From positions 3,938 through 67,937 of the forward strand of contig JAKVON010000014.1 of NCBI GenBank assembly GCA_022482785.1: DNA of 64,000 nucleotides, in the 5' to 3' direction. Position 1 is the first letter of the stretch, and each line of letters opens with the position of its first letter. The DNA comes from Atopobiaceae bacterium. Its GTDB lineage: Bacteria > Actinomycetota > Coriobacteriia > Coriobacteriales > Atopobiaceae. The position numbers were made by a program, and so were the translations under genes. Below, piece by piece: positions 9,520 to 49,189 of the stretch. The notes under the pieces are model-generated. The model made no database searches. It saw only the letters and a program-made list of their open reading frames with translations, and was not told where the DNA came from.

Positions 9520-9712
9520 AGCTGCCCCATCCCAGAAACTTTTTCCGCCGATTCCCACCGACAGGCACCGCCCACGCCTGTCGCCGCGCCGCCCGCAGCC
9601 GTGCGTTATGGCCACATAACGACGCGGCATTTGTTGGTAAAACTCGCAGGTCCCATATTCGTAGGTGCCAGGCCGGCAACCCTTCCGTCGCACGTGAGCC
9701 AGAGGAGAGACC

Positions 9713-11186
9713 ATGAGCAAACCAGCGTCACAGCAAGGCAAGGAGGCGACGCAGGAGTCCACCAGGACGAGGGACCGCAAGGCCCTCGTCTCCGGACTTG
9801 CCTGCATCGCCATCGGGCTCGTCATCTACTTCCTTCCCGTCCCCGACGGCGTCGACGCCCGCGGCATGCATATGCTCGGCATCTTCGTCGCCACCATCGT
9901 CGCGCTCGTCCTGCAGCCGCTTCCCACCGCGGCCGTGGCCATCATCGGCCTCACGGCCTCCATGCTCACCGGCGCGATGAGCGCATCCAAGGAGGCGTTC
10001 ACCGGGCCTCGGGAGCTCGTCGATCTGGCTCATCGTCGCCGCGTTCTTCATCGCCCACGGGCTTCGTGAAGACGGGCCTCGGGCATCGCATCGCTCTCAT
10101 GTTCCTCACGAGGCTGGGAAGCTCGAGCCTCGGCATCGCCTACGGCCTTGCCGCGACCGACCTCGTGCTCGCCCCGGCGACCCCGTCGAACACCGCGCGT
10201 CTCGGCGGCATCCTGTTCCCGGTCATCACCTCCATCAGCGACGTGCAGGGCTCGACGCCCAAGACCGACGAGTCGCGCCTCAGGCTCGGAGCCTACCTGG
10301 CCGTGACCGCGAACAACGTCAACGCCGTGACCTCCGCCATGTTCCTCACCGCCATGGCCTGGCGGGCCCATCTGCGTCGAGCTCGCCGCGAAGTCTGGAA
10401 TCACCCTCGACTGGGGCCAGTGGGCGCTCGGCGGCATCGTGCCGGGCCTCGTCGCCCTGCTGCTCATCCCCCGCGTCGTCCAGCTCGTCTTCCCGCCCAC
10501 GCTCCAGAAGATGCCCGAGGGCAAGCAGAACGCCAAGGACCAGCTGGCCGAGATGGGTCCCATGTCGGTCCAGGAGAAGATCATGGGCGCCACCTTCCTG
10601 GTCATGCTCCTGCTCTGGTCGCTCGGCTCCTTCTTCTCCATCCCGGCGACGGCCGTCGCCTTCCTCGGAGTCTCGATCCTGCTCGCCACGCGCGTGCTCG
10701 ATTGGAAGGACCTCTCGGGCAACAAGGCCGCCTGGCAGACCCTCATCTTCTTCGGCATCCTCGTCGGCATGGCGGGACAGCTCAACACCCTTGGCGTCAT
10801 CGGCTGGATGGGCCAGACCGTGTCGGCGGCCGTCGGTGGCATGTCCTGGCCGATGGTGCTCGTGATCCTCTCGGCCCTGTACTTCGTCCTGCACTACATG
10901 TTCGCCTCCGAGCTCGCCCAGATCGCAGCGCTGTATCCGCTGTTCCTGAGCGTCATGGTTGCCGCCGGCGTCCCGCCCGTGCTCGCGGCCCTCATGCTCG
11001 GCGCCCTCTCGGCCCTCATGGGCGCCATGACGCCACTACGCCTCCGGCCCCGCCGCGCTCATCTACGGATCCGGCTACGTGAAGACCTCCGAGTTCTTTA
11101 AAGTGGGCATTGCCTGCGGCATCCTGGTGCTCGTGGTCTGGCTTACCGTCGGGCTCGGCTGGTGGAAGATCCTCGGGATCTGGTAG
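9713..11186 (+). pseudogene. DASS-family (divalent anion:Na+ symporter / dicarboxylate) permease with four +1 frame disruptions (or sequencing errors)
   Basis: Five frame segments join into one full-length permease. Segments: 9713-~10007; ~10008-10060 (IWLIVAAFFIAHG); ~10060-10358 (FVKTGLGHRIALMF...LTAMA); ~10359-11033 (GGPICVELAAKSG...GAMT); ~11034-11186 (HYASGPAALIYGSGYVKTSEFFKVG...WKILGIW stop). Each junction lies in a short C or G run. Confidence 0.8.
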
Positions 11187-11246
11187 GGCGGCAAAACGCG
11201 CCCGAACGGCTCTCTGCACGACCCTCTGTGACATCGACTCGAAAGG

Positions 11247-12885
11247 ATGATTGACATGATCAAGAACGGACTCGCGGTACTGGCCGACCCCATGCAGAAC
11301 AAGGGGACCGGTTTCACGCAGGCAGAACGCGTCGAGCTGGGCATCGACGGGCTGCTTCCCTCGGCCGTCCAGACGATCGAGCAGCAGGAGGCCATGGTCT
11401 ACGAGCGCTTCTGCGCCCAGCCCACCGACCTCGCCAAGCGCATGTACCTCATGAGCGTGCTCGACTCCAACACGCGCCTCTACTACTACAGCATGGCCCG
11501 GCACCTCACCGAGTACATGCCCATGGTCTACGCCCCCACCGTCGCGCAGTCCATCGAGGGCTTCGACGACCACTACTTCGGCAGCCGCGTGGCCTATGTC
11601 GACGTCAAGCACCCCGAGAACATCGAGAAGGCCCTCAAGCAGTTCGCCGGCGACTCCGACATCCGCCTGGTCGTGGCCACCGACTCCGAGGGCATCCTCG
11701 GCATCGGCGACTGGGGCGTCAACGGCGCGGAGATCCTCACCGGCAAGCTCGCCGTCTACACCGCCGCCGCGGCCATCGACCCCACCAAGATCCTGCCGGT
11801 CATGATCGATGCCGGCACCAACCGCAAGGAGCTCCTCGACGATCCCCGCTACATGGGCATGCGCTGCGAGCGCATCCGCGGCAAGGAGTATGACGACTTC
11901 ATCGAGGAGTTCGTGAACGTCTCGCTCAGGCTCTACCCCGAGGCGCTGCTGCACTGGGAGGACTTCGGGCGTCCCTGCGCAGCCCCCATCCTCGAGCGCT
12001 ACCGCGACAAGGTCCTCACGCTGAACGATGACATCCAGGGCACGGGCGTCACCGTGCTCGGCGCCCTCGAGGCGAGCCGCAGGGTCGCGGGTACGAGCTA
12101 CGACGACGCGAAGATCGTCATCTTCGGCGCCGGCACGGCCGGCATGGGCATCGCCGACCAGATCGTCGACGGCATGGTGGCCTTCGGGAACATGACCCTC
12201 GAGGCCGCGCAGGCCAGGATCTATGCCGTCGACCGCCAGGGGCTCATCCTCAAGGGCATGCCCGACCTCACCGAGGGCCAGAGGCGCTATGCGCCACGAT
12301 GCCTCCGAGTTCCCTGCCGGCGCCGATCTCTCGACCCTCGAGAACGTCGTGGCGACGGTCAGGCCCACGGCCCTCGTCGGCACCTCGACCGTGCACGGCG
12401 CCTTCACCGAGAAGGTCTGCCGCGACATGGCGGCGAGCGTCGAGCGCCCCTTCATCGCCCCCATCTCCAACCCCACCAAGCTCGCGGAGGCAACCGCCGC
12501 CGACGTGCTCGCCTGGACGGACGGCCGCGCCTCGGTGATCACTGGCACCCCCTCGGCCCCGGTCGAGCTGGGCGGCGTGACCTATCGCATCGGCCAGGGC
12601 AACAACGCCCTCATGTACCCGGGCATCTGCCTGGGGGCCCTGCTCCCGAGTGCCAGGCTCGTGAGCCGCGGGATGCTGCTCGCCGGTGCCCGCGCCCTGG
12701 CCGACATGGTCGACACCACGACCCCGGGTGCCCCGATCCTTCCGCCCATGGCGGCGCTCACCGACATAACCCGCAACGTGGCGAAGGCGGTCTGCCAGTG
12801 TGCCATCGACGAGGGGATAAACCGCGTTGAGGTCGCAGACGTCGACGCCGCGATCGACGCGGCGGCCTGGCATCCCGAGTACTAG
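11247..12885 (+). pseudogene. NAD-dependent malic enzyme / malolactic enzyme family, one +1 frame disruption (or sequencing error)
   Basis: The N-terminal 348 codons (LADPMQNKGTGFTQAERVELGIDGLLP, IFGAGTAGMGIA) are in frame 0. The C-terminal ~198 codons (HDASEFPAGADL...GQGNNALMYPGI...) are in frame 1. The junction is at ~12294 (gcgCCac). ATG 11256 is an alternative start. Confidence 0.82.
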
Positions 12886-12935
12886 GCTGGGGGCATGGCC
12901 GACGACCCGATGGCGCGGGACGGGAGCATATCGCG

Positions 12936-13865
12936 ATGATGGCAATCGAGAACATCCACGACCTCGAGGTCTTCTGTGCGATCGTCGGTGCGGGCAGCTT
13001 CACGGGGGCTGCCCGCACCCTTGGCATCACCCAGCCTGCCGTCTCCCTCTCGGTCAAGCGGCTCGAGCGCCAGCTGGGCACCACGCTCCTCGACCGGCAT
13101 CGCTTCGGGTCGAACGACACGGCCCTCACCGACTCTGGAAAGGTCCTCGCGCGCCACGCCGAGGCAATCGTCAAGCACGCGGCTGAGGCGATCGACGAGA
13201 TAGAGGGGCTCGAGCGTCAGCAGGTCATCAGGCTCGGCCTGCCTCCGATGATCATGGAGTACTACCTCGCCGGCAGGATGGACGACCTCAAGCGCGCGTT
13301 CGGCGGCCGTTCCGTGAGCGTGTGCTCCTACGGCTCTGAGCGCATGATCCGCGAGGTGAAGCACCACAACATCGACGTGGGCGCGGTCGCCTCGCCGAGC
13401 GAGGCCCTGCAGATCCCCTACGTCAAGAGCGTGAAGGTGGGCTCGTTCCCGTTCTGCCTCGCGGTTCCCGCCGACCATCCTCTGGCCACGTATTCGCGGA
13501 TGAGCCTCGACGTGCTCGCGCAGCTCCCCGACTACCCGTTCGTCTCGTTCACCAAGGACTTCATGCAGCATGACGTGCTGAGCGGCCTCTTCGAGGACTG
13601 CGGCAAGGTGCTCAACGTGGCCGCCGAGACCGACCAGCTTCCCGTCCTGAAGCGGCTCGTCTCGACGGGGATCGGCATCGGCCTCGTCACGAGCCTCGCC
13701 GTGGACGAGCAACGCGATGGGCTGCACCTCATCCCCATCGTGGGGGAGGGCGTGCCCACCTTCAACGTGTTCGTGTTCGAGGACGTCTCGAGGCCCGTGC
13801 GGCAGGGCCACGAGGCGGTCACCCGAATCCTCAAGGTCCTCTACTCGGCCTCGCGCTCCACGTAG
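12936..13865 (+). CDS. LysR-family transcriptional regulator (MleR-like by context)
   Basis: 309 aa. HTH FTGAARTLGITQPAVSLSVKRLERQLG followed by a LysR substrate-binding domain. Confidence 0.9.
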   Translation: MMAIENIHDLEVFCAIVGAGSFTGAARTLGITQPAVSLSVKRLERQLGTTLLDRHRFGSNDTALTDSGKVLARHAEAIVKHAAEAIDEIEGLERQQVIRLGLPPMIMEYYLAGRMDDLKRAFGGRSVSVCSYGSERMIREVKHHNIDVGAVASPSEALQIPYVKSVKVGSFPFCLAVPADHPLATYSRMSLDVLAQLPDYPFVSFTKDFMQHDVLSGLFEDCGKVLNVAAETDQLPVLKRLVSTGIGIGLVTSLAVDEQRDGLHLIPIVGEGVPTFNVFVFEDVSRPVRQGHEAVTRILKVLYSASRST

Positions 13866-13989
13866 GCGCGTCGCGCTCGGGACCTGCCCGTCGTCACCCT
13901 TTCGCCGATAGGATCGGCCGGACACCATGCGCCAGCGTATCATCGCAGGTAAAGTATCCTGTTCGCATTCTAGTCGGGGGATGGTATCC

Positions 13990-16960
13990 ATGGGACCAAG
14001 GTCAAGGGGAATCCGTGCGTTTCTGAGCGCTGTGCTGACGGTCGTGCTCTCCGTGGCCATGGTGCCGCAGGCGGCGCTCGCCGAGGCCGTGGCCGAGACG
14101 CCCGTGGCAACGGAGTCTGCCGCCACGCCCGCATCCGAGACGTCGAGCGAGGCCGCGGCCTCCGGCTCGACGGCCGACGCCGCGTCCCCGTCCCCTTCGG
14201 AGACGTCGGCCGATGTAACCGAGCCTGCGTCGTCCGCCGAGGCCGCCCCTGCGACGGCGTCGGCCCCCGAGGCCCCCTCCGAGGCGACCCCCTCCGAGGA
14301 CGCGTCCGCCTCCGGGACGTCGACCGACAAGGAACCCGTTGCATCCGGCACGAGCGCGGATGCTGACTCGACGGGCGCGCCTGCGTCCGTCACGACGCAG
14401 GCCGACGCCGTCGGCGCTGCGGATGCCGACGAGAAGCAGGGCGGCACCGTCTCCACATACGCCGACGTCATTCGCCAGAGGGCCATCAACGAGAGCTACA
14501 ACGCGGTCCACGCTTCGGACCCCGACGCGCTCGGCACCCAGTCCACGCTGCCGTCCTCCTACAAGGTGACCGACGGCTACGACTCCACCTGGGCCGCCCG
14601 CGACCAGAACCCCTTCAACTCCTGCTGGGCGTTCGGCGCCACGGCGAGCGTCGAGAGCAACATCCTCAGGCAGAGGGGCGGCACGGGCGCCTCGGCCCTC
14701 AACCTGTCCGAGCACCAGCTCGCGTACTTCGCCGAGGTCCCGGTCACCTCCTCCACGACCATCGCCGGCCGCGCAATCGACGCCGACCAGGCGGGCGAGG
14801 GGATGTCCGTCGTCGGCGGGCTGGACGCGGGCGGGACCATCGGCGGGGCAGCCGAGGCGCTCACCTCGTGGGAGGGGCTCGCCTCCGAGTCACAGGACCC
14901 CTCGCTCGCCTACAGGGCGACAGACGGCACGATCAGCTCCGACTCCGACTGGTCGCTTGCCGAGTCGCTCCGCGGGGTCTCCGCGGCCCACGTCACCGAC
15001 GTCGAGTCCCTCCCGTCCCCGGCAACCCTCGGAGAAGAGGACGGGAAGATAACCTACACCTACAACCCCTCCGGCACGGAGGCCATCAAGAAGGCGCTCA
15101 TGGGCACGGGCGGCGTCGAGGCGATGGTGATGTACGACGAGGGGGCGGCCTACAGGGCCGATACCGGCGCGCTCTACAACCCCTCGTACGTGCAAGCCAA
15201 CCATGCGATCACCATCGTCGGATGGGACGACGACTATCCCTCCTCCAACTTCGCCAAGGCCCCCGACGATAACGGGGCCTTCCTGGTCAGGAACAGCTAC
15301 GGCTCCTATGGAACCTACGAGAAGATCGACGTGCGCGTGAACGGCAGCACCACGTCGGAGAAGTTCACGCAGCGGGTGTATACGGACCAGTCTGGCGTGG
15401 AGCACTACGTCTACCTAGACCAAAGCAATGAGTATGGGCAGGGCGAGGGAACGATGTTCGAGCTCACGAAGGGTACGGGCGGAACCTATTCGCTCGATAC
15501 GTCGAAGCCGTACAAGACTGGCGTGAAGGTGCTCGATAAGACGTCGAGCTCCATCGAGTACCAGCTGAGCGACGGCTCGAAGATCAAGGCTTCGATGACT
15601 CCCTTGGCCGGCACCGAGAACTCGCCCACCTGGGGTGGGTGCTTCTGGCTGTCCTACTACGATGCGTCCGTCATGAATGCGACGTCGTATTCCGCGGAGG
15701 AGCCCGATTCCAGCGGGAAGTTCTCCGCCGACCACATCTACGAGTACGACTACCTGGGCAATGCGAGCAGTATCCCGACGATGGAGGGCGCGTTCGACAC
15801 CACGTCCGGCCCCACGTCCGAGACGGTGGTGGCCCAGTGCGCCAACGTCTTCACCTCGGTGGGCAACGAGGTCCTCACGGCCGTCTCCGCGACGACCCAG
15901 AGCGCCGCGAGCACGGTCGAGGTCCTCGTCTACCGCCTGCTCGGCGGCGCGACGGGCCCCACCCAGAGCGCGACCGGCCAGCCCGAGGCCACCGTCACCT
16001 ACAAGGCCGCCAACGCGGGCTACCACACCATCGACCTCACGACGCCGTTCTTCCTCCACGCGGGCGAGTCCTACTCGGTGGTGGAGCGGATCACGAACTA
16101 CCAGGGCCAGGGATACGTCCCCGTCGAGATGGGACGCAAGGCCTCGCCAGGGCTGGGAAAGGGGACGTCCATAGGTACGACCGCGAAGTCGGGAGAGGGC
16201 GAGAGCTACATCAGCCAGGACGGCGGCGCGACGTGGACCGACGTGAGCACGCTCTCCGACTACATCAAGAAGATGGTCAATCCGGCCTATGCGACTGCCG
16301 GCTTGGTTCCGACGAGCGTGGGCAACGTCATGATCCGCGCGTTCACGAAGGACTGGACGCCCACGCCCGAGCCCACGCCGGCAGTGACGCCCACGCCTTC
16401 GAGCCTGTGGCCGCGACCACGTCCGAGCCGACGGCCGCGTCCGAGCCGGCGCCCAAGCCGTCCGGCCCATGCCTTCCGCGAACGTACAGACCAGGACCTA
16501 CGCGAACGGCGTCACGGCGACGCTCGTGGGCAGCGACGAGTCCATCGACGACCTGGTGGTCGCCCGCAGAGACGACGTGCCTGACGGCGAGCTCGCGGCC
16601 ACGCCCTCCCAGGAGATGCTGTCCGCGCTCGGCAATCGCACGCTCGAGAGCGACTGGGACGCCTACTTCACCGACGGGACCACCACGGGCTTCGGCACGC
16701 TGACGCTCTCCCTCCCGGCATCCGGCGACGAGGCGCAGGTCTGGCAGCTGCACGACGGGACGGTCGCCGACGGCGACGGCCTTGCGGCCGCGGGCGCCGA
16801 GGCGGCGCGCGAGGGCCTCGGCGGCCAGCTCCTCCTCATGCGGACGGGCGACCTCGACGTGGCCGCCACCACCGACGCGGCCGTGCGGCCCGACGGCCAG
16901 GTCGTGGCATCCACGCGGACGCTCCCCGGCGAGTTCTCGGTGAGCTCGGCAAAGGAGTAG
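13990..16960 (+). pseudogene. Secreted papain-like (C1 family) cysteine peptidase with low-complexity linker, two -1 frame disruptions near the C-terminus (or sequencing errors)
   Basis: ATG 13990 follows GGGGGA. Signal peptide MGPRSRGIRAFLSAVLTVVLSVAMVPQAALA. Ser/Ala/Pro/Thr-rich linker. Catalytic motifs QNPFNSCWAFGA, NHAITIVGWDDDY and FLVRNSYGS. The frame changes at ~16397 and ~16467 inside a PT-rich linker. The reading then continues as PSANVQTRTYANGVTATL... to 16960. Out-of-frame read-through would stop at 16584. Confidence 0.7.
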
Positions 16961-17084
16961 GTCGTCCTGCCGGCGGTATGACGCAGCGGATGTGACCTGT
17001 GCAATGCAGGCAAAACCTATGCTGGCCGTTTCCGTTGCAGGGAAACGTCCAGCTCGGCGCAAAGAGCTCTGGCCAGGTAAACGG

Positions 17085-17121
17085 CAGGCCCCGTCATCGT
17101 TTCTTCCGATGGCGGGGCCTG
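17085..17121. terminator. 15-bp stem hairpin downstream of the peptidase gene
   Basis: CAGGCCCCGTCATCG, loop tttcttc, CGATGGCGGGGCCTG (one G-U pair). Confidence 0.45.
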
Positions 17122-17154
17122 GCCTAGCTCGCGAGTTGGAATAGCCGCATCAGG

Positions 17155-17210
17155 CCGGTTGCCGCCCCCATGCGCTCGGCAGATACCATGCACATGGGGG
17201 CGGCAACCGG
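17155..17210. terminator. 18-bp perfect inverted repeat downstream of the minus-strand permease gene
   Basis: CCGGTTGCCGCCCCCATG (17155-17172), 20-nt loop, CATGGGGGCGGCAACCGG (17193-17210). The permease stop is at 17233. Confidence 0.55.
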
Positions 17211-17232
17211 GCGATGCGGCCTGCGTGCCCAG

Positions 17233-20200
17233 CTACACCTTGTTGATGTCGGTCAGCTTGAACTTGCCGATCCGTCGCAGCGCGATGAGATTCACCAGGA
17301 CGGAGAAGAACGCTGTGGATGCGACGCCCGCAAGGCAGGCGATCACGCTCGGGTTGGCGATGTAGTCGTCCATCTCGAACTCGATGGACTGGATCGACAG
17401 GTATCCCATGACCGACCCGACAACGATGCCGATGATGATGCCGATGATGGTGAGGACGATGCTGTCGAGGTAGATGTACCTCTTGGCATCACGTAACGAG
17501 AATCCGTTGATCATGAGCACGATGAGGTCGCGCTTCTTCTCCTCGATGAACATGATGGACTGGTTGAGCAGGACGACGAGGGCCATGAGCGCGGAGAGGG
17601 CGATGTAGAGGATCACGAGCGTGCGCGTGATCGAGGTGAGCGAGTCGAACTGCGCCTTGTCGTCGATGTAGTCCTCCTTGACCGAGAAGAACCCCTTCAT
17701 CTGGCGGAGCTGGGAGATCAGCTGCTCCTTGTCGGCCCCGTTGTTGGTGATCAGGATGGTGTTCGGGGCGTAGGTGACGCCGAAGACGGACTCGTAGTAG
17801 TCCTTCCTCATCACGAACTCGTGCCGCGTGAGCCGCCAGGGGAAGACCGTCAAGACGCTGATGTCGTGCGACGTGTTGTCGGTGGTGTAGACGTCGACGT
17901 TAAGCTCCGCGTTGGGATCGTGGACGTTCAGGCGGTAGAGTGATCCGAGGTGCTTGACGAATCCCGAGCTCACCAACGCATTGCTCGAGAGCTCTTCGTC
18001 GTACTCCTGCCTGAGCTCTTCGTCTTGGGTGTGCAGGTTTTCGTCGAACGAGGCGTTGTTGTCCGGGACGCTGACCTCGATGGGGCTGGTCGAGCCGTCT
18101 GGCTTCCTGACCAGGTAGAACTCTCTCCGGTAGAGGGCGGCGTTCGCTCCCGCGTCGTTGATGGTCTGCTCCATGGCCGCGAGGTCCTCCGCGGTCGCGT
18201 CTCTCGTGACGATCGAGTAAGTGTAGGTGTAGACCTCGGTGTACTGGTCCTGGAAGGTCTTCTCGACGTCTATGAGCATGGTCGTGGCGCTCACGACCAG
18301 CGCGGTGCAGCCCATGACACCCACGACGGTTCCGAGAACGCGCAGCTTGTCGTTGAAGAAGTTGTTGACGATCGACTGGGAGAGCACGGGCAGCTTGTTC
18401 CAGATGCGCAGCCTCTCGTAGAAGTGCTGCTTGCTGCTGGGGGGCTCCTCGCCCTTGAGGAGCTGGATGGCCTGCTTCTTGAGCATCTTGCGGCAGGCGA
18501 ACCATGCGGAGAGGAGAATCAGCGCGAGTTCGACCGCGCCTATCTGCAGCACATCCACGATGGAGGCGTATGGCCCGTACGACCCGAACGAGAACTGCGA
18601 CTGCGCGGCGCCGTTGAGCACGCCCTCGACGATCAGGATCGCGAGCAGGGCGCCTGCCGCGATCCCGATGACGACGGCGAGGCCGGCGTAGGCGAGGAAG
18701 CTCGTCGTGATCTCCCCGGAACGCAGGCCGAGTGCCTTCTTGGTGCCGATGGTCACGATCTGCTCTTTGACGATGCGCGAGATGGCCGTGTAGCAGACGA
18801 GCAGACCCACGAGCAGGAAGAGCGAGGCCATCGAGAGGCGCAGGCGGTCGGTGACGTCGGCGAAAGACGAGATCTGGGCATAGCCCGCGTTGGCGTGGCG
18901 GTTCTGCACGATCCAGCCGGTGTCCTTCGCCTGCTCGAAGGTCTCGACCTTCTGGGCGAGGGTGGCCTTGGCATCGGCGAGCTCGGCCTTCTTCTGCTCG
19001 ATGGTGGCCTTGCCGTCCTCTATCTCCTGCTGCTTCTGCTCGATGGTGGCCTTGCCGTCGGAGAGCTCCGGTCTTCTTCTGGGCGAGGGTCGCCTTGCCG
19101 TCCGCGAGTTCCTGCTCCTTCTCGTTGAGCGTGATGCGGGCCGAGTTGTACTCCCCGATGCCGCTCTCGAGCTGCGAGCGTGCCGACAGGTACTGCTTGT
19201 ATTGGGAGAGGGCGCCTCTCGGCCTGGGAGGAGAACGTCGAGACGAGCGGCTCGGGAACGCCCTTGCCGCGGGCGACCTCGGAGGCCGACTTGCCGGATG
19301 ACGCCGCCTCGTCGAGGATTGACCTCAGCAGGTCGGCGACGTTCGAGGCCGATCCGAGCGCGTTCGTGGTGTCCTTGGCCTTTATCGAGTTCGCGGCGTT
19401 GTCGATGGTGGCGTTGATCTCGCCCTCCTTGCGCACTGAGCTCGGACTCCGCCTGGTTGATCGGTGTCGAGCTTGTCGGCAAGCGTGGCCTCGGCATCAT
19501 CGGCCTGGGCCTGCCCGTCCGCGATCTCCTGCTCCTTCTCGGCGATCGTCTGCTCGCCGTCCGCGATCTCCTGCTGCTTCTCCGCGATCGTCTGCTCTCC
19601 GTCGGCGATCGTCTGCTCACCGCTGTCTATCTGGGCCTGCCCGTCGTCGATCTTGGCCTGGGCGTCGTCTATCTGGGCCTGGGCCTTGCTCCTGAAGGCC
19701 GCATAGCGCGCCGCGGCGTTGGCGTTCCCCAGATCCTGGAGCTTGTCGAGCATCGCGCTCGTGGCCGTCGTGTAGCTGGTGCCGAAGGAGGAGATTCCAG
19801 ACGTCGCGCTGCAACGCACGAGGGCATTCGAGTAGCAGCCGTCATAGGTGGCCGTGTCGAATGCCGCCTGGGGCAGGACGAGGAAGCAGTCGGCGGACCC
19901 CACCGAGAGGTTGGTCGTGCCGCGCGTGGAGAGCGTGACCGATTCGTAGCAGGGAGAGCTCACGAGGGCACACACCTTGAACGACCTGCCATTGAGGTAC
20001 TTCGAGCCGTCTGCGGCGCTCGTGTCGTCGGGGTCGAACGTGATGGTGTCGCCGATGCCCAGGCCCATCTTGCCGGCGAAGACGCTGTCCACGGCGACTT
20101 CGTCGGCATTCTGCGGGAGCGTCCCGTCGATGCAGACGGGCTGGTCGATGGTGTCGGGAATCGATATGACCGTGGCGACGTGACCCTGGCCGTCGAGCGA

Positions 20201-20485
20201 GAACGTCTCGTAGGCGCTGTAGGACCCCTCTGCCTTCTCCACCCCGTCCGTGGCCCGGATGTCGGCGAGGTCCTGCTGGGTGATGCCATAGGGATAGGCG
20301 ATGTCGAAGTCGTGGAACTGCTGGGCCTCGTAGGTTCTGTCGGCCGCCGCGTCGAGCGCCATGGCCGACCAGCGGATGCCGAGGAAGATGCATACGCCGA
20401 GTGCCACGAACATCACGATCGAGAAGAAGGAGACCCAGGTTTTCCTGATGTTCGCAAGGAGGTCTATGAGCCGTGTACGCTTCAT
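17233..20485 (-). pseudogene. Very long FtsX/MacB-type ABC permease with an extracytoplasmic coiled-coil repeat region, four frame disruptions (or sequencing errors)
   Basis: The N-terminal ORF 19382..20485 has TM1 then an extracytoplasmic domain ending in ...QTIADGEQTIAEKQQEIADGEQTIAEKEQEIADG. The C-terminal ORF (in frame from ~19070 down to 17233) has KATIEQKQQEIEDGKATIEQKK..., two FtsX 4-TM-type blocks and a second extracytoplasmic domain. Connecting pieces are INQAESELS, VRKEGEINATIDNAANSIKAKD... and YKQYLSARSQLESGIGEYNSARITLNEKEQELADGKATLAQKK. Frame changes lie at ~19460, ~19435, ~19213 and ~19070. Confidence 0.75.
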
Positions 20486-20489
20486 GGGG

Positions 20490-21698
20490 CTACCAGACCA
20501 GGTCCGTGGCAGGAGCGCGATGCCGGTTGACGGTGACCTCGTACACCTGGCCGTTCCTCATGCGCACCACGCGGTTGGCCATGCGGGTTATCTCCTCGTT
20601 GTGGGTGACCATGACGAGCGTCGAGCCGTTCGCCACGACCTTCTCCATGACCGAGAGGACCTCGATGCTCGTCGTGTAGTCGAGCGCCGCGGTGGGCTCG
20701 TCGGCCAGGATGATCTTGGGGCGCTTGACGAGGGCGCGGGCGATCGAGACGCGCTGCTGCTGGCCGCCGGAGAGCTGGGAGGGGTAGCTCGTCTTGCGCT
20801 CCGAGAGCCCTACCACGTCCAGGGCCTCGTCGGGATCCATGGGATCGTCGACGAGCTCGGCGATGAGCTGGAGGTTCCTCTTCGCGTTGAGGTTGGGCAT
20901 GAGGTTGTAGCTCTGGAAGATGAAGCCGATGTTGTGACGTCGGAACTCCGTGAGGGTCTTCTGGTCTGCCCGGGAGTAGTCCTCGCCCATGAAGTCGAAC
21001 GAGCCGTCGGTCGCCGCGTCCATGCCGCCGATGATGTTGAGCAGCGTCGACTTGCCGCATCCCGACTCGCCCAGAAGCACGAGGAACTCCCCCTCGTAGA
21101 CGTCGAGGTTCACGCCCTTGAGGACCTTCGTCACCTGGTCGCCGTTCTGGAACTCGCGCGTGATGCCACGCAGCCTCATGATCGCCTTGCCCGGCTGCCA
21201 CCGGTCCTGGACGAGGTCGCCCTCCTCGATGGAGATCGCGGCCATCATCGCCATGATCTCGCAGGTGTCGGCATCCTCGTCGGTGAGGGGCCGGCTTCCC
21301 GCGCGGTTCGAGACCTCGACGCATCCGAGGATGCCGCGGTCGCCCGTGAGCGGGGCGCATACCAACGACTCGAGCACGGGCGCGTTCTCGCCGCCCGTGC
21401 CGGCGACCCCGAGGTCGAGGAGCCTCAGCGTCTTGCCGTCCGAGAAGACGCCGCCGATGGATCCCTCTCCGGGGGCGTAGGAGCTCGACGTGATGTCGTC
21501 GGAGCCGATCCAGTAGTAGGGGTGGAGGCGGCCGTCTCCCGCCTTGTCCGGATACCAGATGACGGCCATGTCGGCCTTGCAGGCCTCGACGATGAGCTTG
21601 AGGCTCTCGTGCAGCGCGTCGTCGAGCGTCTTGGCGTTGGATATCGCCGCCTGCATCGCGCCGATCGCGCGATACTGCCTCATGAGGGTGTCATCCAT
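20490..21698 (-). CDS. GAF domain fused to a MacB/LolD-type ABC transporter ATP-binding protein
   Basis: 402 aa. Residues ~1-165 are GAF-like ([23 protein letters not shown] ... GEGSIGGVF ... SLVCAPL...[10 protein letters not shown]...[13 protein letters not shown]). Then Walker [10 protein letters not shown], signature [15 protein letters not shown], Walker [12 protein letters not shown] and THN. The stop lies 4 nt before the permease start. Confidence 0.88.
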
Positions 21699-21787
21699 GA
21701 CCTGCCCCTATCCCGTTTTCCGTCCGAGTGATGACTCACATGTCACTCACTCTATCGACGCCCGTGGGGCTACGGCGGCGGCCATGG

Positions 21788-21813
21788 CCCGAAAATCGTC
21801 GAGCGGGCGGTCA
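21788..21813. repeat. Degenerate single unit of the 26-nt repeat family
   Basis: CCCGAAAATCGTCGAGCGGGCGGTC resembles the unit TGGCAGAAAAAGTCGAGTTTGCGGTT seen at 27489 and 51438. Confidence 0.4.
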
Positions 21814-21993
21814 TGGCCGGGTGGGATTCGCTCCTGCAGGCGGAATTCCCGCAGGTGGATAAGGCATGCCGGGCAAGCTTAATAAAAAGTTAAGAAATGA
21901 GGAGGAGGGGGACGTGCAACTCGGGCGAGGGGCCCATGCCTGCCTGGCGCGCGCGGCGCCGCGCGCGGGCCTTTCTTGCCGCGAGCGTGGGCG

Positions 21994-22680
21994 CTACGGC
22001 CGCCGCACGGCCCCGTAGCGCTCGTAGTAGGCGTCGAGCGCGGCCTTGGTGGCGTCATCGATGACGACCTCGCCGGCGCACGGCTTGGCATGGAGGGCCT
22101 CGACGACCTCGTCCATGGTGACGATGGCGGCCGTCGGGAAGCCGTAGCGCTCGCTCACCTCGTCGAGCGCGCACTGCGTGCCGCCCTTGCCCACCTCCTG
22201 GCGGTCGAGCGACACCATGAGCCCCACGACCTCGACATCGCCCTGGGCCTTGATGATGGGGTAGGTCTCCTCGATTGACTTTCCGCTGGTGGTGACGTCC
22301 TCCACCATGACCACGCGGTCGCCGGAGGCAAGGGGGCTCCCCAGGAGGATGCCGGCGTCGCCGTGGTCCTTCGCCTCCTTGCGGTTGGAGCAGTAGCGCG
22401 CCTCCTTGCCGTAGAGCTCGTCCAAGGCCATGCAGGTCACGACTGCCAGGGGGATGCCCTTGTAGGCGGGCCCGAACACCACGTCGAAGTCGAGCCCGAA
22501 GCTGTCGTGGATGGCGGTCGCGTAGGCCAGCCCCAGGCGATGGAGCTGGTCTCCCGTGACGTAGGCCCCGGCGTTCATGAAGAACGGCGACTTCCTGCCG
22601 CTCTTGAGGGTGAACTCGCCGAACCTGAGCACATGGCTCTCGACCATGAACTCGATGAAATCGCGCTTGTATGCCTCCAT
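21994..22680 (-). CDS. pyrE: Orotate phosphoribosyltransferase
   Basis: ORF trimmed to MEAYKRDFIEFMV (ATG 22680). PRPP-binding loop VVMVEDVTTSGKS. FTLKSGRKSPFFMN motif. Confidence 0.92.
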   Translation of the reverse strand: MEAYKRDFIEFMVESHVLRFGEFTLKSGRKSPFFMNAGAYVTGDQLHRLGLAYATAIHDSFGLDFDVVFGPAYKGIPLAVVTCMALDELYGKEARYCSNRKEAKDHGDAGILLGSPLASGDRVVMVEDVTTSGKSIEETYPIIKAQGDVEVVGLMVSLDRQEVGKGGTQCALDEVSERYGFPTAAIVTMDEVVEALHAKPCAGEVVIDDATKAALDAYYERYGAVRRP

Positions 22681-22778
22681 GGGGCTCCTTCGGCGTCGCC
22701 GTGGCTCGTCGTGGAGATTATAGGCCTCGTGCCCCAGGCCGACCTCGATGACGGCGAGCGAGGGCCCCGGCCTTCGGG

Positions 22779-24446
22779 TCACCTCGTCTCGTAGATGACC
22801 GCCTCGAGGGGGCGGAGCGTGCCGGGGGTCGCGTGCCCGTGCGTGGAGGCGACGAGCGCGGAGCCCTGCGTCAGGCAGGGGTCGTAGCCCGCCGGCTCGA
22901 CGGAGAGGTTCGCGAGCACGGTCGCGGTCGCGTCCGCCGAGGCGCGCGTGTAGGCGTAGATCCGCTCGTCGTCCGCCAGGAGCTCGTGGTAGTCGCCGCA
23001 GAGGAGCTCGGCGTGGTCCTGCCTCATGCGGGCAAGCTCGCGGTACCAGGACAGCACCGACGCATCGTCCGCAGACTCCGCCTCGACGTTCTGGCTGGCG
23101 TAGTCGTCATGCACGGGCAGCCAGGGCGTCGCGGAGGAGAACCCGGCGTTCCTGCCCGCGTCCCACTGCATGGGGGTGCGGGCGTTGTCGCGGCTGAAGC
23201 GGTGCACGGCCTCGAGAGCCTCGGCCTCCGAGAAGCCCTCCTCGAGGGCGAACCCGTACTGCGACCTCGAGGAGACGTCGTTGTAGTCGTCGATCGAGGG
23301 CCAGGCGACGTTGGCGTATCCCAGCTCCTCCCCCTGGTAGACGAAGGGGGTGCCGCGCAGGGTGAGCAGCACCGTGGCCAGGCATCGCGCCGCCTGCGTG
23401 CGGTCCGCGCCCGCGGGGAGGAAGTTGTCGACAGAGCGGGGCTGGTCGTGGTTCTCGAAGAAGACCGGGCACCACCCGTCCGCGGCGGTCGACGTCTGGT
23501 ATCCCGTGAGGGCCTGCTTGAGCTCGGTCAGCCTCCAGGCCGGGGCATGGCACCACTCCTCGGCCGCGCCCATGGGCACGTGCATGTGGTCGAAGCCGAA
23601 GAGCATGTCGAACACGCCGTCCGCCCCCACCCACCTGGGCAGGTCGGAGGTGGGAACGCCATTCGCCTCGGCGACGGAGAAGATGTCGTGCCCCTCGAGG
23701 ACGCTTCGCTTGAACTCGCCCAGGTAGTCGAGGATGCCTTCGGTGTTGGCGGTCATGTCGTGGATGCGTGCCATGCCGTCCTCGCCGTCGGGAGTGCCGT
23801 CCACGAAGCGGTTGGGCTTCTTGATGTAGGTGATCGCGTCGACGCGGAAGCCCCCCACGCCCTTCTCGACCCAGAAGTTCGCGACGTCGAAGAGGGCCTG
23901 GCGGACATCTGGGCTCTCCCAGTTGAGGTCGGGCTGGGCCGAGGCGAAGGTGTGCAGGTAGTACTGCTGGCGCTCCTCGCACCACTCCCATGCCGAGCCG
24001 CCGAAGATGCTGCGCCAGTTGGTGGGCGCGCCGCCTCCGGGCCGGGCGTCGCGCCATACGTACCAGTCGGCCTTGTCCCCGTCCCTTCCCGCCCTCGACT
24101 CCAGGAACCAGGGGCACTGGTCGGACGTGTGGTTGAACACCAGGTCCATGACCAAGCGTATGCCGCGCTCGCCTGCACGGGCGATGAGCTCGTCCATGTC
24201 CGCCATGGTCCCGAAGCTCGGGTCGATGGCGCGGTAGTCCTGGACGTCATAGCCGTTGTCCACCATGGGGGAGCGGTAGACCGGCGTGAGCCAGAGGGCA
24301 CCCACCCCGAGCGAGGCCAGGTGGTCGAGGCGCCCGATGATGCCTCGGATGGTGCCCGTCCCCTGCCCCCGCGTGTCCTGGAAGCTCTTGGGGTAGGCCT
24401 CGTAGGCTATGGTCCTCTGCCACCATCTCATGCCATCGGGTCTCAT
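22779..24446 (-). CDS. GH13 alpha-glucosidase / oligo-1,6-glucosidase family
   Basis: ATG 24446 follows GAGAGGAG. GH13 regions DLVFNHTS, GGFRVDAITYI, SVAEANG and FFENHDQPR. Confidence 0.9.
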   Translation of the reverse strand: MRPDGMRWWQRTIAYEAYPKSFQDTRGQGTGTIRGIIGRLDHLASLGVGALWLTPVYRSPMVDNGYDVQDYRAIDPSFGTMADMDELIARAGERGIRLVMDLVFNHTSDQCPWFLESRAGRDGDKADWYVWRDARPGGGAPTNWRSIFGGSAWEWCEERQQYYLHTFASAQPDLNWESPDVRQALFDVANFWVEKGVGGFRVDAITYIKKPNRFVDGTPDGEDGMARIHDMTANTEGILDYLGEFKRSVLEGHDIFSVAEANGVPTSDLPRWVGADGVFDMLFGFDHMHVPMGAAEEWCHAPAWRLTELKQALTGYQTSTAADGWCPVFFENHDQPRSVDNFLPAGADRTQAARCLATVLLTLRGTPFVYQGEELGYANVAWPSIDDYNDVSSRSQYGFALEEGFSEAEALEAVHRFSRDNARTPMQWDAGRNAGFSSATPWLPVHDDYASQNVEAESADDASVLSWYRELARMRQDHAELLCGDYHELLADDERIYAYTRASADATATVLANLSVEPAGYDPCLTQGSALVASTHGHATPGTLRPLEAVIYETR

Positions 24447-24495
24447 GTGGGTCTCCTCTCTCGTTGGTTTAAACAAGTCTAGCCATTTTTACGAG

Positions 24496-24531
24496 AGGCC
24501 CCTCCGCCGCGTCCATGCGGCAGAGGGGCCT
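24496..24531. terminator. GC-rich hairpin just downstream of ppc (minus strand)
   Basis: AGGCCCCTCcGCCGC, loop gtccat, GCGGCaGAGGGGCCT. There is no U-tract in the minus-strand direction. Confidence 0.45.
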
Positions 24532-24553
24532 GGAAGCGGCATGTCCGGGGATT

Positions 24554-27292
24554 CTACCCCGTGTTCTGGAGGCCTGCGGCGACTCCGGAGACGGTGCAGA
24601 GGATGAGGAAGATGAACCGCTCGCGCTCCTCCGGCGTGAGCGCGTCGCCCCTGGTCCTGATCTCGCGAAGGGCGTGCACCTGCGCGAGCGAGAGGGCGTT
24701 CACGTAGGGCAGCCTCACGCGCACGACCTGGCCCAGGACCCGCCTCTTGGCGAGCGGCGCCTCGTCGCCCACGATGGCGAGGACCCACTTGCGCGTGAGG
24801 CGCATCTCGTCCATGACCTTCTTGGTGAGGTCGGGGCGGTCGCCGAGGGAGAGGTACATGGCGGCGATGCGGTCGTCGGTCTTGGCGAGCGACATCTCGA
24901 TGTTGTCGACGAAGGTGGTGAAGACGGGCCACTCCCCGTAGGCCTTGCGCAAAAGCTCGAGGTCGTCGAGCCTCTCGCAGGCGGTGCCCAGGCCGTACCA
25001 GGCGGCGAGGTTGATGCGCGCCTGCGACCACGAGAACACCCAGGGGATGGTGCGCAGGTCGTCGAGCGAGGTGGCGCCCAGGCCGCGCTTGGCCGGCCGC
25101 GAGCCGATGGGCAGCAGGCCTATCTCGGCGAGCGGCGTCACGGTCGAGAACCACTCGGGGAACCCGTCGGTGTTGAGGAGGTCGACGTAACGCTCGCGCG
25201 AGGCGAGGTCGAGCCTCTTGCCCATGTCGCCGTAGATGCGCGTGGTCTCGGTGTTGAGCCACTCGATGCTGGGCGCGGAGTTGAGCAGCGTGGCCGCCGC
25301 GACCGACTCCACGTGCCTGCGGGCGAGCGTCTGGTCCCCGTAGCGGGCGAAGATGACCTCGCCTTGCTCGGTGAGCTTGAAGCGGCAGTTGACCGAGCCC
25401 TTGGGCTGCGAGAGCACGGCGTGGTTGGCGGGCCCGCCCCCGCGGCCGACGGCGCCCCCGCGACCGTGGAACAGCGTGAGGTCGATGTGGTGCTCCTCGG
25501 CCCAGCGAGCGATGCGGCCCTGCGCGGAGTGGAGGGCGAGCGTGGCCGAGGTGGGGCCGGCGTCCTTGGACGAGTCGGAGTAGCCGAGCATGACCTCCAT
25601 CTTGCGCCCGGTCTGGGCCAGGCGGCGCTGGACGTCGGGGAGCTTGATGATCTCCTCGAGGGTGTCGACCGAGCCCTCCAGGTCCTCCAGCTGCTCGAAG
25701 AGGGGGATGACGTCGAGCGTGGGAACGTCGGCCTCGTGCTCGAAGGCGAGGCGGGCGAGCTCGTAGACGTCGGCAATGTCCTGCGCCGACTTCGTGAACG
25801 AGATGATGTAGCGCCTGGCGGCGTCGACCCCGTTCTTGCGCTGGATGTAGCCGATGGAGCGGAAGGTGTCGAGGACCTCGAGGGTCATGGGGGCGAGCGC
25901 GCCCCTCTCGCCATGGCGCCCGTGCTCGCGGATGTCGGCCAGGGCCCGCGAGTGCACGACGGAGTGCTGGCGGAACTCCATCTGCACGAGGTGGAAGCCG
26001 AAGGTCTGCGCCTGCCAGATGAGGGTCTGGACGGGCCCGTAGGCGCTGCGGACCGCCCCGGAGCCGGCGAGCGAGTCCTGGACGACGCGCAGGTCGGCGA
26101 TGTACTCGTCGGCCGAGCCGTACATGATGTCGGCGGTGCGGGCGATGGTCGCCTCGAGCCGGTTGGCGATCACGAGCATGACGGCGCGGTGCGGCTCTCG
26201 GTCGGAGACCTCGCTCGCCTGGTCGGTGAGGCGCTCGCTCATCTCCACCTGGTGGTTCCAGAGGTTGGTGAGCTCGGCCGAGGGGGTGGTGGACCCCGCC
26301 TCGAGCGTGAGGTTGCGGCCGATGGCGTGGGTCTCGGAGGCGAGGGTCTCGAGCATGTGGACGCGGAACTTCTCGGAGACGGTGCGGCTCACCTTGGCGG
26401 TGACGTTGGGGTTGCCGTCGCGGTCGGAGCCGATCCAGCTGCCGGGATGGAAGAAGGCCGGGCACACGGGCGGCACGGTGCCCGCCTCGGCTCCGAGCTC
26501 CCAGTCGTCGAAGCGGCGGTATACCTCGGGGATGGTGCGGAAGAGGGTGTTGTCGAAGATGTCGATGATGGTGTCGGCCTCCTCGACGGGGGTCGGCTTC
26601 TTGAGCGCGATGGGCGAGGTGCGGAAGAGGGCGTCGATCTCCTGGAGCATGCGCCGCTCGTTCTCGGCGAGGTCGGCCCCGCCGAGGCTGGGACGCTCGT
26701 CGAGCAGCCGTGCGATGCGGCGGATTTTGCCCTCGACCGCCTTGCGGCGCGCCTCGGTCGGGTGTGCCGTGAAGACGGGATGGAACTCGAGCCTGCCCAG
26801 GAGCTTGTCGGCCTCGTCCTTGCCCATCTCCTCGATGAGGCGGCGATAGGCGACGGTGATCTCGTTGACGGGGTCCTCGGCCGCGTCGAGGTCGACCAGG
26901 GACTCGCGGGCACGCAGCGACGACACGCGGTAGTTCTCCTCGCAGACGTTGGCGAGGTGGAAGTAGGCCGCGAAGGCCCTCATGACCAGCTGGGAGCTGT
27001 CCTCGGAGAGAGACTCGACGACGCTCACCGCGTCGGCGAAGGCCGCGTCGGCCCTCTTGGCAGGCGACTGGCTGGAGTAGGTGTCGATCATGTCGTCGAG
27101 CAGGTGGTCGAAGACCTTCCGCAGCTCGGGGTCGTACTCCTTGAGGACGCGCCTGACCAGGCGGAGGAAGAGCTCGAGGTTGTCTTTGAGGGCGTCTGGA
27201 ACGTTCACCTCCGAGAGGGCCTCGGCGGCCGCGGCCGCCTCCCCCCTCGGCTCGATCATGCGCTTGAGCTCGTGCGTTTCGTCTTGAGTCAC
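24554..27292 (-). CDS. ppc: Phosphoenolpyruvate carboxylase
   Basis: 912 aa. [12 protein letters not shown] and [10 protein letters not shown] motifs. C-terminal ...GLQNTG signature. Confidence 0.95.
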
Positions 27293-27446
27293 GGTGCCTC
27301 CCCATGGGGCGCCGCGATGGGCGTCCCTGCACGCTCGATAGTTATCGCGGACAAGGGTAGCAGCCCGGTCCCGCGTGGCAGGCGGCGCGGGCCGTTTCGT
27401 AATCTGCAGATAACAGAAGGGTCATGTGGCGACCGTGGTTGGTCCC

Positions 27447-27621
27447 TGGCAGAAAAAGCAGGGTGTGCGGTCGGAGGGCCGCGGCGCGTGGCAGAAAAAG
27501 TCGAGTTTGCGGTTCCCAAACCTCTCCCGCAACCGGCTTCGGCTCGAAAACACGACCGCACACCCTACTTTTACTGCCAGAAGATTGCTTTTGAGGACCG
27601 CACACCCTGCTTTTCCTGCCA
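27447..27621. repeat. 175-bp composite element of four 26-nt units (two forward, two reverse), copy A
   Basis: Units at 27447-27472, 27489-27514, 27554-27579 and 27596-27621. Unit starts are at offsets 0/42/107/149. See findings. Confidence 0.85.
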
Positions 27622-47481: not shown

Positions 47482-47585
47482 CCGGGCCCCCTCGCGGGCC
47501 CTCATCCGCCGACGACGGACGTATGCGGGCCGTTGCGCCGACCCGCCGCCCTTCCGTACCCCGGCCGGACACAACATGGTCGAGC

Positions 47586-48725: not shown

Positions 48726-48833
48726 GGGGCTTGCCGCTACCTGGCGTGCCATTCGCCGCGTTCGGCGGGTTCGAGCTCGTTTTTCGCGCTTAGTGGGGAA
48801 TAGAATACTGGCAGGCTTGTTAAGAGGGGGTAG

Positions 48834-49187
48834 ATGTTGGATAGGGAAATTCTCAAGGGTGCTGGCATCGACTACGAGGACGGCGTCCGCCGCTGTGGCG
48901 ACAACTCCGGCCTCTACGAGCGTCTGCTCTCCCTGTTCCTCGCCGACGACAACTTCGAGGGGGCGAAGAAGGGCCTTGCCGACAAGGACTACGACGAGCT
49001 CTTCTCCCGCACCCACGAGATCAAGGGCATGAGCGGCAACATGTCGATCACGGACGTATACCGCACCTCGTCGAACGTCGTCGCCCTCCTCCGCGCGAAG
49101 GACTACGACGCGATCCCCGCCGCCTTTGCCGAGCTTGAGGACGCCTACGGCAAGGCCACCGATGCGATCGAGTCCGCCCAGGGCTAG
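48834..49187 (+). CDS. Stand-alone Hpt (histidine phosphotransfer) protein
   Basis: 117-aa helical protein. Phospho-His context FSRTHEIKGMSGNM. RBS AGAGGGGG upstream. Confidence 0.8.
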   Translation: MLDREILKGAGIDYEDGVRRCGDNSGLYERLLSLFLADDNFEGAKKGLADKDYDELFSRTHEIKGMSGNMSITDVYRTSSNVVALLRAKDYDAIPAAFAELEDAYGKATDAIESAQG

Positions 49188-49189
49188 CC

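Follow-up and report, generated by a model that had tools for sequence, protein, structure and literature searches.

We analysed a 64,000-nucleotide stretch of DNA from an Atopobiaceae bacterium (assembly GCA_022482785.1, contig JAKVON010000014.1, positions 3,938 to 67,937 of the forward strand), referred to below as the window, which has a G+C content of 65%. Positions 17233–21698 of the window hold a two-gene unit on the minus strand that encodes an ATP-binding cassette (ABC) ATPase carrying an N-terminal GAF domain and a long FtsX-type permease with a coiled-coil stalk, and together these genes encode a genuine membrane machine of as yet unstudied function. The permease gene starts (20485) 4 nt past the ATPase stop codon, as read at the gene junction in the window. 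The source assembly comprises 2.61 Mb in 33 contigs (genome 85.5% complete), and the window lies on the contig that we call C14. Another version of the locus lies on contig C23 of this assembly, and a syntenic Joint Genome Institute (JGI) metagenome contig, L100, is 93% identical in DNA to the window locus, with the gene order ppc, amylase, pyrE, GAF-ABC, permease, C1 peptidase, LysR and malic enzyme. The two genes and the interruptions in the second of them are located as follows.

20490..21698, minus strand: GAF-ABC ATPase gene, intact, 402 aa; an open reading frame (ORF) with Pfam GAF and ABC_tran matches, the protein being identical on C23.
17233..20485, minus strand: permease gene, 1082 aa once four extra bases are ignored; assigned from its frames, its intact twin and Pfam FtsX.
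19462, minus strand: frame break 1, an extra G (coding strand) that is not in C23 or L100.
19432, minus strand: frame break 2, an extra G (coding strand) that is not in C23 or L100.
19218, minus strand: frame break 3, an extra G (coding strand) that is not in C23 or L100.
19068..19069, minus strand: frame break 4, an extra G within GG (coding strand) that is not in C23 or L100.

As a consequence of these breaks, the minus-strand reading frame of the permease in the window passes from 0 to 1 (briefly), to 2, back to 0 and on to 1. The same gene is uninterrupted in C23, where a single ORF of 1082 aa extends from MKRTRLIDLL to TDINKV, and in L100, where the permease is again intact at 1082 aa with zero indels across the gene. 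An arrangement of several separate genes was rejected on these grounds, and the proposal of one long permease, made in an earlier sequence-only reading of this DNA, proved to be correct. Programmed frameshifting was likewise rejected, since it would need four sites, these share no slippery motifs, and the twin contig is identical minus the extra bases.

Comparison of C14 with C23 over window positions 16500–21500 (~5 kb) revealed the four inserted bases and zero substitutions, whereas the flanks of the two contigs carry 3–6% substitutions (94–97% identity; window 9540–27600 compared). At five more frame breaks in the window (10002, 10054, 10358, 11033 and 12293), C14 again has one C or G that C23 lacks, and all nine breaks compared are single C/G insertions in C14, never deletions. 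Four indels against zero substitutions, with every indel an insertion, do not resemble the natural decay of a gene. The breaks in the window permease are therefore most likely consensus errors of C14, and the organism itself almost certainly carries an intact permease. The alternative is that the window copy is a true pseudogene, the four insertions having inactivated the permease of one strain and the gene surviving in a co-resident one. The four insertions are present in the assembled sequence, they lie outside long homopolymers, and two versions of the region occur in one assembly, all of which would fit such a history; the ratio of indels to substitutions, the one-sided nature of the nine breaks and an ATPase gene that has no break at all speak against it, and we regard it as improbable. 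An exact-pattern scan of metagenome contigs across two of the break sites gave no match. The presence of two versions of the region suggests that the bin mixes two strains, and the substitution-free block of ~5 kb could have arisen when co-resident strains recently exchanged DNA, or through an artefact of assembly.

The five additional breaks fall in the DASS permease and malic enzyme genes of the window, and the whole 11-kb stretch of C14 that holds these breaks looks poorly polished. The malic enzyme (545 aa) and the C1 peptidase (988 aa) are both intact in L100.

The ATPase consists of three parts.

21228..21626, minus strand: GAF domain, residues 25–157 (Pfam, AlphaFold2 topology, family profile).
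20529..21185, minus strand: nucleotide-binding cassette of MacB/LolD/FtsE type, residues 172–390 (NCBIfam, Foldseek).
20493..20528, minus strand: conserved C-terminal tail NRHxAxAxDLVW, residues 391–402 (34-sequence alignment).

The N-terminal domain scored above the Pfam cut-offs for both GAF PF01590 (36.9 bits, cut-off 22.4) and GAF_2 PF13185 (34.9 bits, cut-off 28.6). In the AlphaFold2 model of the ATPase (predicted local distance difference test, pLDDT, 84.5), a short linker joins the GAF fold to a canonical cassette, and the helix/6-strand/helix topology of its N-terminal domain fits a GAF domain. A single-sequence search with residues 1–174 against 1.84 billion cluster representatives returned 627 matches, the nearest of which, after the family's own representative and its fragments, are GAF repeats of giant multi-GAF sensor proteins. 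The corresponding single-sequence search of the PDB gave only weak matches to DosT and DevS. With a profile built from 17 family GAF sequences, the PDB search instead placed PDE2A first (E-value, E, 6e-12), accompanied by PDE5, PDE10, PDE6 and CyaB2 of cyanobacteria (3.5e-9), and the GAF domain of PtsP and an HD-GYP protein were matched as well; all of these rank ahead of DevS. A haem-sensor assignment was dropped because the weak DosT/DevS matches were overtaken in the profile search. The family shares GxGxxG, CVP and N-R/K...F..D elements with the ligand-binding PDE and CyaB domains, whose type binds cyclic nucleoside monophosphates, and within the NKFDE-like pattern it keeps N131, R/K132, F138 and D142. 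Judged by its sequence, the N-terminal domain is a bona fide GAF domain of the PDE/CyaB type. The source genome encodes 12 GGDEF proteins, and no class III cyclase (PF00211) was found in this 85.5%-complete genome; cyclic di-GMP (c-di-GMP) therefore appears to be its dominant nucleotide messenger.

The cassette was matched by Pfam ABC_tran with 119.4 bits over ATPase residues 193–337, and the top NCBIfam models were DevA, MacB, LolD, a bacteriocin exporter, DarD and FtsE. Every one of these scores fell under its curated cut-off, including those for the DevA-family exporter model TIGR02982 (211.5 bits, cut-off 295.8) and the FtsE equivalog TIGR02673 (175.6 bits, cut-off 264.85), and the ATPase is therefore claimed by no curated family. 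The motifs of a complete cassette are invariant in 34 homologues, namely Walker A (GESGCGKST), the Q-loop (Q262), the signature SGGQQQR, Walker B (D333) with the catalytic E334, and the H-loop (H366). In a Foldseek search the ATPase model matched the nucleotide-binding domain (NBD) of MacB first (5lj9, TMt 0.92), followed by Spr0694, BceA, YbbA, HrtA, FtsE, YtrE and LolD, so that the closest solved NBDs to the modelled one all belong to the type VII ABC set. Residues N391, R392, L400, V401 and W402 of the tail are invariant across the 34 sequences, and relatives without a GAF domain also align through residue 402; the alignment thus marks NRHxAxAxDLVW as a signature of this ATPase subfamily.

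The permease could be divided into seven segments, in which transmembrane helices are denoted TM.

20324..20437, minus strand: TM1 and its extension, residues 17–54 (hydropathy peak, AlphaFold2 helix).
19781..20323, minus strand: β-rich globular part of ectodomain 1, residues 55–235 (AlphaFold2 strands at 60–225; Foldseek).
18934..19780, minus strand: helical hairpin stalk, residues 236–516 (AlphaFold2, block pLDDT about 78–92).
18481..18888, minus strand: first FtsX module, TM2–TM4 and coupling helix, residues 532–667 (hydropathy, AlphaFold2).
18232..18480, minus strand: cytoplasmic linker (668–711) and TM5 (712–750), conserved (alignment, AlphaFold2).
17674..18231, minus strand: ectodomain 2, α/β and MacB_PCD-like, residues 751–936 (AlphaFold2, weak Pfam match).
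17236..17673, minus strand: second FtsX module, TM6–TM8, residues 937–1082 (the best Pfam FtsX stretch; AlphaFold2 TM6–8 at 937–1068).

Pfam FtsX PF02687 matched two stretches of the permease with 69.3 bits (cut-off 25.5), and hydropathy gave a count of eight TM helices. Both hydropathy and the AlphaFold2 model, which was built with 50 homologues (pLDDT 83.9, predicted template modelling score 0.68), describe a layout of TM1, an ectodomain and TM2–4 that occurs twice, with no extra TM pair seen between the two halves. In this model, two 4-TM FtsX modules are fused into a pseudo-dimer. Its length, about double that usual for such proteins, is explained by the duplication of the FtsX module together with the insertion of the coil.

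Ectodomain 1 is composed of a globular part and a stalk. In Foldseek, the globular part matched YbbP and the ectodomains of LolE, MacB and YknZ, and its residues G121, P124, G145, D146, G189 and F209 are invariant. Residues ~236–516 are rich in Ala, Glu, Gln and Lys with a 7-residue periodicity, and AlphaFold2 predicted that they form an antiparallel hairpin at the end of ectodomain 1, in which a helix of 135 residues (236–370, ~20 nm) leads to a helical tip (371–410) and a return helix of 106 residues (411–516, ~16 nm). Sequence searches with the permease were dominated by this stalk: the permease profile matched only coiled-coil proteins (myosin, SMC, tropomyosin) among the 60 PDB matches listed, which is uninformative, and the NCBIfam search of four permeases at E up to 10 yielded generic coiled-coil matches to the stalk (SMC, Rad50, PgrA, HmpF). 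The elongated ectodomains of YhgE/Pip/EsaA-type proteins carry LxxG heptad repeats, and models of that type gave no NCBIfam match to the four permeases at the same threshold. A repeat of the form xxIxDGx is visible in the permease by eye only.

Ectodomain 2 resembles MacB_PCD weakly (E 0.052, 14.3 bits against a 27-bit cut-off), the match covering residues 244–375 of the break-free 611-aa C-terminal piece in the window. Invariant residues were found in the first FtsX module (R569, G579, K582, A583, G585, E590), in the linker and TM5 (F687, E689, W694, N707, D711, R714, G724) and in the second FtsX module (E981, K982, I991, G993, Y1002). Over the whole permease, they cluster in TM1, at the base of ectodomain 1, in both coupling-helix regions and in the linker. 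The sequence-only reading had described a GAF domain ahead of a complete MacB/LolD-type cassette and a heptad-like coil built into the first ectodomain. The former is borne out by the Pfam scores, the modelled topology, the invariant motifs and the structural match to the MacB NBD, and the latter by the periodicity and by the two long helices and tip of the model. It had also given the permease as more than twice the usual length; the length is real, and a duplication of the YbbP kind had been overlooked.

The pair has the hallmarks of type VII ABC systems, combining a MacB/LolD/FtsE-type ATPase with 4-TM FtsX modules that have a large ectodomain between TM1 and TM2. The closest solved structure to the permease model was YbbP of Escherichia coli (9ge6_A, E 8e-14, TMt 0.57), followed by BceB, LolE, MacB, Spr0695, YtrF and HrtB, and isolated ectodomains of YknZ, LolE and MacB were also among the matches. 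YbbP belongs to YbbAP(-TesA), a type VII ABC lipid-hydrolase complex (PDB 9GE6–9GE8) that shows ATP-driven mechanotransmission in a fused permease (PMC12646458). The two systems are alike in having a fused, duplicated FtsX-type permease, two Porter/Sabre-like ectodomains and a MacB-type ATPase, which is present in two copies in YbbAP and would be so here, and YbbA is among the best structural matches of the cassette. They differ in that YbbP has ten TM helices, including an extra pair (TM5–6) that links its halves (PMC12646458), against the eight predicted here, with the halves joined by a cytoplasmic linker; in addition, YbbP has no hairpin, YbbA has no GAF domain, and no TesA-like esterase is conserved beside the present pair. 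The permease scored 21.9 bits with the NCBIfam YbbP model NF041854, whose cut-off is 999. It is YbbP-like and not a member of the YbbP family, because its halves are joined in the cytoplasm and the extra TM pair is missing.

Other type VII families differ from the pair in comparable ways. MacAB-TolC and the monoderm Spr0693-0694-0695 and YknXYZ systems have the same NBD and 4-TM FtsX folds and a long α-helical hairpin above the permease, but their hairpins reside on a separate adaptor that forms a hexameric tube, whereas here ectodomain 1 itself contains the hairpin, one per transporter and covalently joined, and the vicinity has no adaptor gene. With only one hairpin per transporter, a MacA-like hexameric tube is impossible from one complex. 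FtsEX is likewise a type VII ABC system with a coiled coil outside the membrane; with EnvC, PcsB or RipC, it is described as performing no transport and as moving an extracytoplasmic coiled-coil protein to control wall enzymes (PMC7668044, PMC6355983). In FtsEX the coiled coil is a separate protein that carries or binds a hydrolase, whereas here the stalk tip bears no enzyme domain, the permease is duplicated and no hydrolase or activator partner is conserved. BceAB has ten TM helices and one ectodomain, against eight and two here, and is accompanied by a kinase/regulator pair of which no conserved counterpart was found. The pair is thus a type VII (MacB/FtsX-fold) ABC system outside the YbbP, BceAB, MacAB, FtsEX and DevA families. 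The likeness to MacA drawn in the sequence-only reading is loose, given one hairpin per transporter, and no PcsB/EnvC-like partner is conserved next to the pair.

A survey of the co-occurrence of GAF-ABC ATPases and long FtsX permeases showed that the pair recurs, patchily, in Coriobacteriia and Clostridia. The ATPase has many homologues of ~406 aa with the GAF and ABC domains, named only 'ATP-binding cassette domain-containing protein', and those named came from metagenome-assembled genomes (MAGs) of Coriobacteriaceae, Atopobiaceae and Eggerthellaceae. The permease search gave 697 matches, mostly of 1000–1200 aa, which go under 'FtsX-like permease family protein' or 'hypothetical'. Side by side, the two genes occur in Atopobiaceae (with a permease of 1113–1127 aa), in a MAG of the Clostridiales (1173 aa) and in Oscillospiraceae, Lachnospiraceae, Coprococcus and other Clostridia (permease about 880–1040 aa), and the pair is conserved in Coriobacteriaceae too. 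This GAF type was found in 0 of 150 species-representative genomes of the window's class, in 4 of 24 genomes from other genera of its family and in 2 of 199 sampled genomes of the class of a pair-carrying Lachnospiraceae MAG (the query's own left out). The patchy distribution and the identical 5-kb block in two otherwise diverged contigs suggest that the gene pair may be horizontally mobile.

GAF-less sister ATPases that keep the DLVW tail occur in Ruminococcus flavefaciens, Lachnospiraceae and Clostridium senegalense, paired with permeases of 770–925 aa that have the same 8-TM layout. From ectodomain lengths and inspected sequences, ectodomain 1 ranges from ~210 aa in C. senegalense, with no obvious coil, to ~510 aa, whereas ectodomain 2 is constant near 210 aa; the R. 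flavefaciens permease, whose partner has no GAF domain, shows a coil-like stretch by eye. Because ectodomain 1 varies in length and GAF-less ATPases pair with the same permease type, it seems that a common core has been extended separately by the sensor and by the stalk.

The architecture is recurrent, but no curated NCBIfam family claims it and its homologues bear generic names only; it is not a common annotated family of known function. Of the outcomes that would have contradicted the sequence-only reading (an N-terminal domain that does not score as GAF, a permease made up of several genes, and such a common family), none was seen. We found no paper on a GAF domain combined with a MacB/FtsX/type VII ABC system or on coil-bearing FtsX permeases in literature that was incompletely covered. 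A role in defence was rejected, the PADLOC models giving generic ABC and coiled-coil similarity only. An EamA-family transporter gene directly adjoins the pair in three Atopobiaceae loci (L009–L011, 12584–13546) and in the Clostridiales MAG (L012, 5748–6707), but neither the window nor L100 has it next to the pair.

Type VII ABC systems (MacB, LolCDE, FtsEX, BceAB and YbbAP) are the known route from cytoplasmic ATP to mechanical work outside the membrane and, to our knowledge, the outside partner is a separate protein in every solved case. All the fold relatives of the pair act by mechanotransmission, in which closure of the cassettes on ATP travels via coupling helices and a TM1/TM2 stalk to the working ectodomains; the fused YbbAP is the most recent documented case (PMC12646458). 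From the domain content, the single-gene permease, its topology, fold relatives, pairing and distribution, which the data support directly, we infer a stoichiometry, a gate, a direction, a substrate class and a motion of the stalk. The pair is probably a self-contained two-gene type VII ABC machine in which a GAF-gated ATPase cycle delivers work to a wall-spanning stalk. By analogy with the solved YbbAP and BceAB complexes, a single pseudo-dimeric 8-TM permease would rest on two GAF-NBD subunits, giving a 2:1 stoichiometry. The cassettes would close on ATP binding and open on hydrolysis; both conserved coupling helices would relay this motion to the TM1/TM2 helices, and these in turn would move the two ectodomains. 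The single antiparallel hairpin on ectodomain 1, with a predicted length of ~16–20 nm, could reach into or through a Gram-positive wall. As no MacA-like tube is possible and no PcsB-like enzyme domain is present, the hairpin would more plausibly serve as a lever, a reach-through arm or a guide spanning the wall. The likely work would be to extract or expel a membrane- or wall-associated molecule, or to move a wall-located partner via the stalk.

Control of the ATPase by a fused domain has precedents in MetN (C2 domain), ModC and MalK, in which a regulatory domain attached to the cassette controls NBD closure. Those proteins resemble the present one in carrying a ligand- or partner-binding domain fused to the cassette, and they differ in that their domains are C-terminal, non-GAF and part of type I importers, whereas here the domain is an N-terminal GAF on a type VII ATPase. 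By this analogy, the GAF domain would most likely permit or withhold cycling of the cassettes according to a signal, be it a small molecule of the cytoplasm or a protein partner. A bolder version, which we put forward tentatively as a minority view, is that of a stand-alone signal-gated mechanical arm, in which a GAF-bound messenger would license ATP cycles that swing or piston the covalent 16–20 nm hairpin through the peptidoglycan without an adaptor, with the length of the stalk tuned to wall thickness by repeat expansion.

Several points weigh against a GAF-gated machine with a wall-spanning stalk. In the NKFDE motif of the family the final Glu is replaced by an invariant Ala (A143), and the window protein carries Leu at position 138, where the family has Phe; these differences from the cyclic-nucleotide-binding GAF domains of PDE2A, PDE5, PDE10 and CyaB2 mean that ligand identity is not transferable from the top profile matches. 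The search for a class III cyclase was negative, as described above, and GAF domains can act as dimerisation modules alone. Sequence conservation in the stalk is low across the family, lower than in any other part of the permease, and both the hairpin and the count of eight TM helices are predictions from 50 sequences and hydropathy. An all-against-all ORF comparison of 17 loci found no partner or substrate gene conserved beside the pair; specifically, no PcsB- or EnvC-like enzyme, TesA-like esterase, MacA/HlyD adaptor, BceRS-type system or bacteriocin gene is conserved among them. The true pseudogene in one strain, improbable as it is, belongs with these points.

The strongest competing explanation is that the GAF domain is a docking or dimerisation module and not a small-molecule sensor, the ATPase being controlled by a protein partner, as in STAS/SpoIIE partner switching, or held as a dimer. 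A gene for a membrane 5TM-LYT/SpoIIE-type phosphatase adjoins the pair in three Clostridial loci (L012, 1063–3504; L014, 5425–6915; L015, 11206–14190), and this, the frequency of dimerisation among GAF domains and the lack of a detected cyclase would all suit a docking role. In the source genome, the SpoIIE and STAS genes are located on other contigs, and no such gene lies beside the pair there, in L100 or in the Atopobiaceae loci; moreover, the conserved residues of the GAF domain are those common to the ligand-binding PDE and CyaB domains. We consider a purely docking GAF domain unlikely. Somewhat less likely is a conventional pump that confers resistance to drugs or antimicrobial peptides, of the MacB, BceAB or Spr0693-0695 kind, with the coil as a spacer or shield that has no mechanical role. 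The NBD and transmembrane folds do match MacB, BceB and Spr0695, and a bacteriocin-export ABC model was among the top NCBIfam matches, under its cut-off. Against such a pump, every curated family cut-off was missed, the gene neighbourhoods hold none of the conserved BceRS-type, adaptor or bacteriocin genes that would accompany it, and a stalk of up to several hundred residues, variable in length and retained in two phyla, would be costly as a passive spacer. That the stalk is instead a surface receptor or adhesin-like element (compare the Pip, YueB and EsaA ectodomains), evolving fast under phage or host pressure, would account for its low conservation, variable length and predicted reach to the wall surface, yet it is very improbable given the negative search with YhgE/Pip-type models and the embedding of the stalk in an ATP-driven module with conserved coupling elements.

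What sets the proposed GAF-gated machine with its covalent stalk apart is the placement of a sensor on the motor and of a long stalk on the permease, both within one machine; a type VII motor with an N-terminal GAF fusion was not found in structure searches or in searches of the incompletely covered literature. Should the GAF domain gate the ATPase, the pair would couple signals in the cytoplasm directly to the mechanics of the envelope in Gram-positives of the gut and rumen. Transmission of force across the wall by the stalk, if it occurs, would be a monoderm solution to the distance problem that MacA and EnvC adaptors meet in diderms, and an adaptor-free, signal-gated arm, if real, would be a hitherto undescribed way for a type VII ABC system to act. 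The locus itself adds a Coriobacteriia-type example and the resolution of a likely assembly artefact.

Upstream of the pair lies one further feature.

21699..21993, minus strand: intergenic region between pyrE and the ATPase gene, with an AT-rich patch near 21870–21895 and a GGGGCAGG Shine-Dalgarno-like site.

A consensus scan of the region upstream of the ATPase gene found no sigma-70-like site. A perfect 8-bp G+C palindrome (CGCGCGCG GCGC CGCGCGCG) at window positions 21948–21967, just downstream of pyrE, precedes the AT-rich patch; its role as a terminator is uncertain because the minus strand has no T tract. Elsewhere in the region, C23 (4499–8314) carries an extra gene between the positions corresponding to ~13856 and ~13974 of the window, encoding a 1272-aa secreted subtilisin-like (S8) protease with the motifs DTGVD, HGTHCAG and GTSMSTP; the window contig has ~118 bp at that position and no such gene. 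Three GGDEF-domain genes lie consecutively at window positions 47005–50062.

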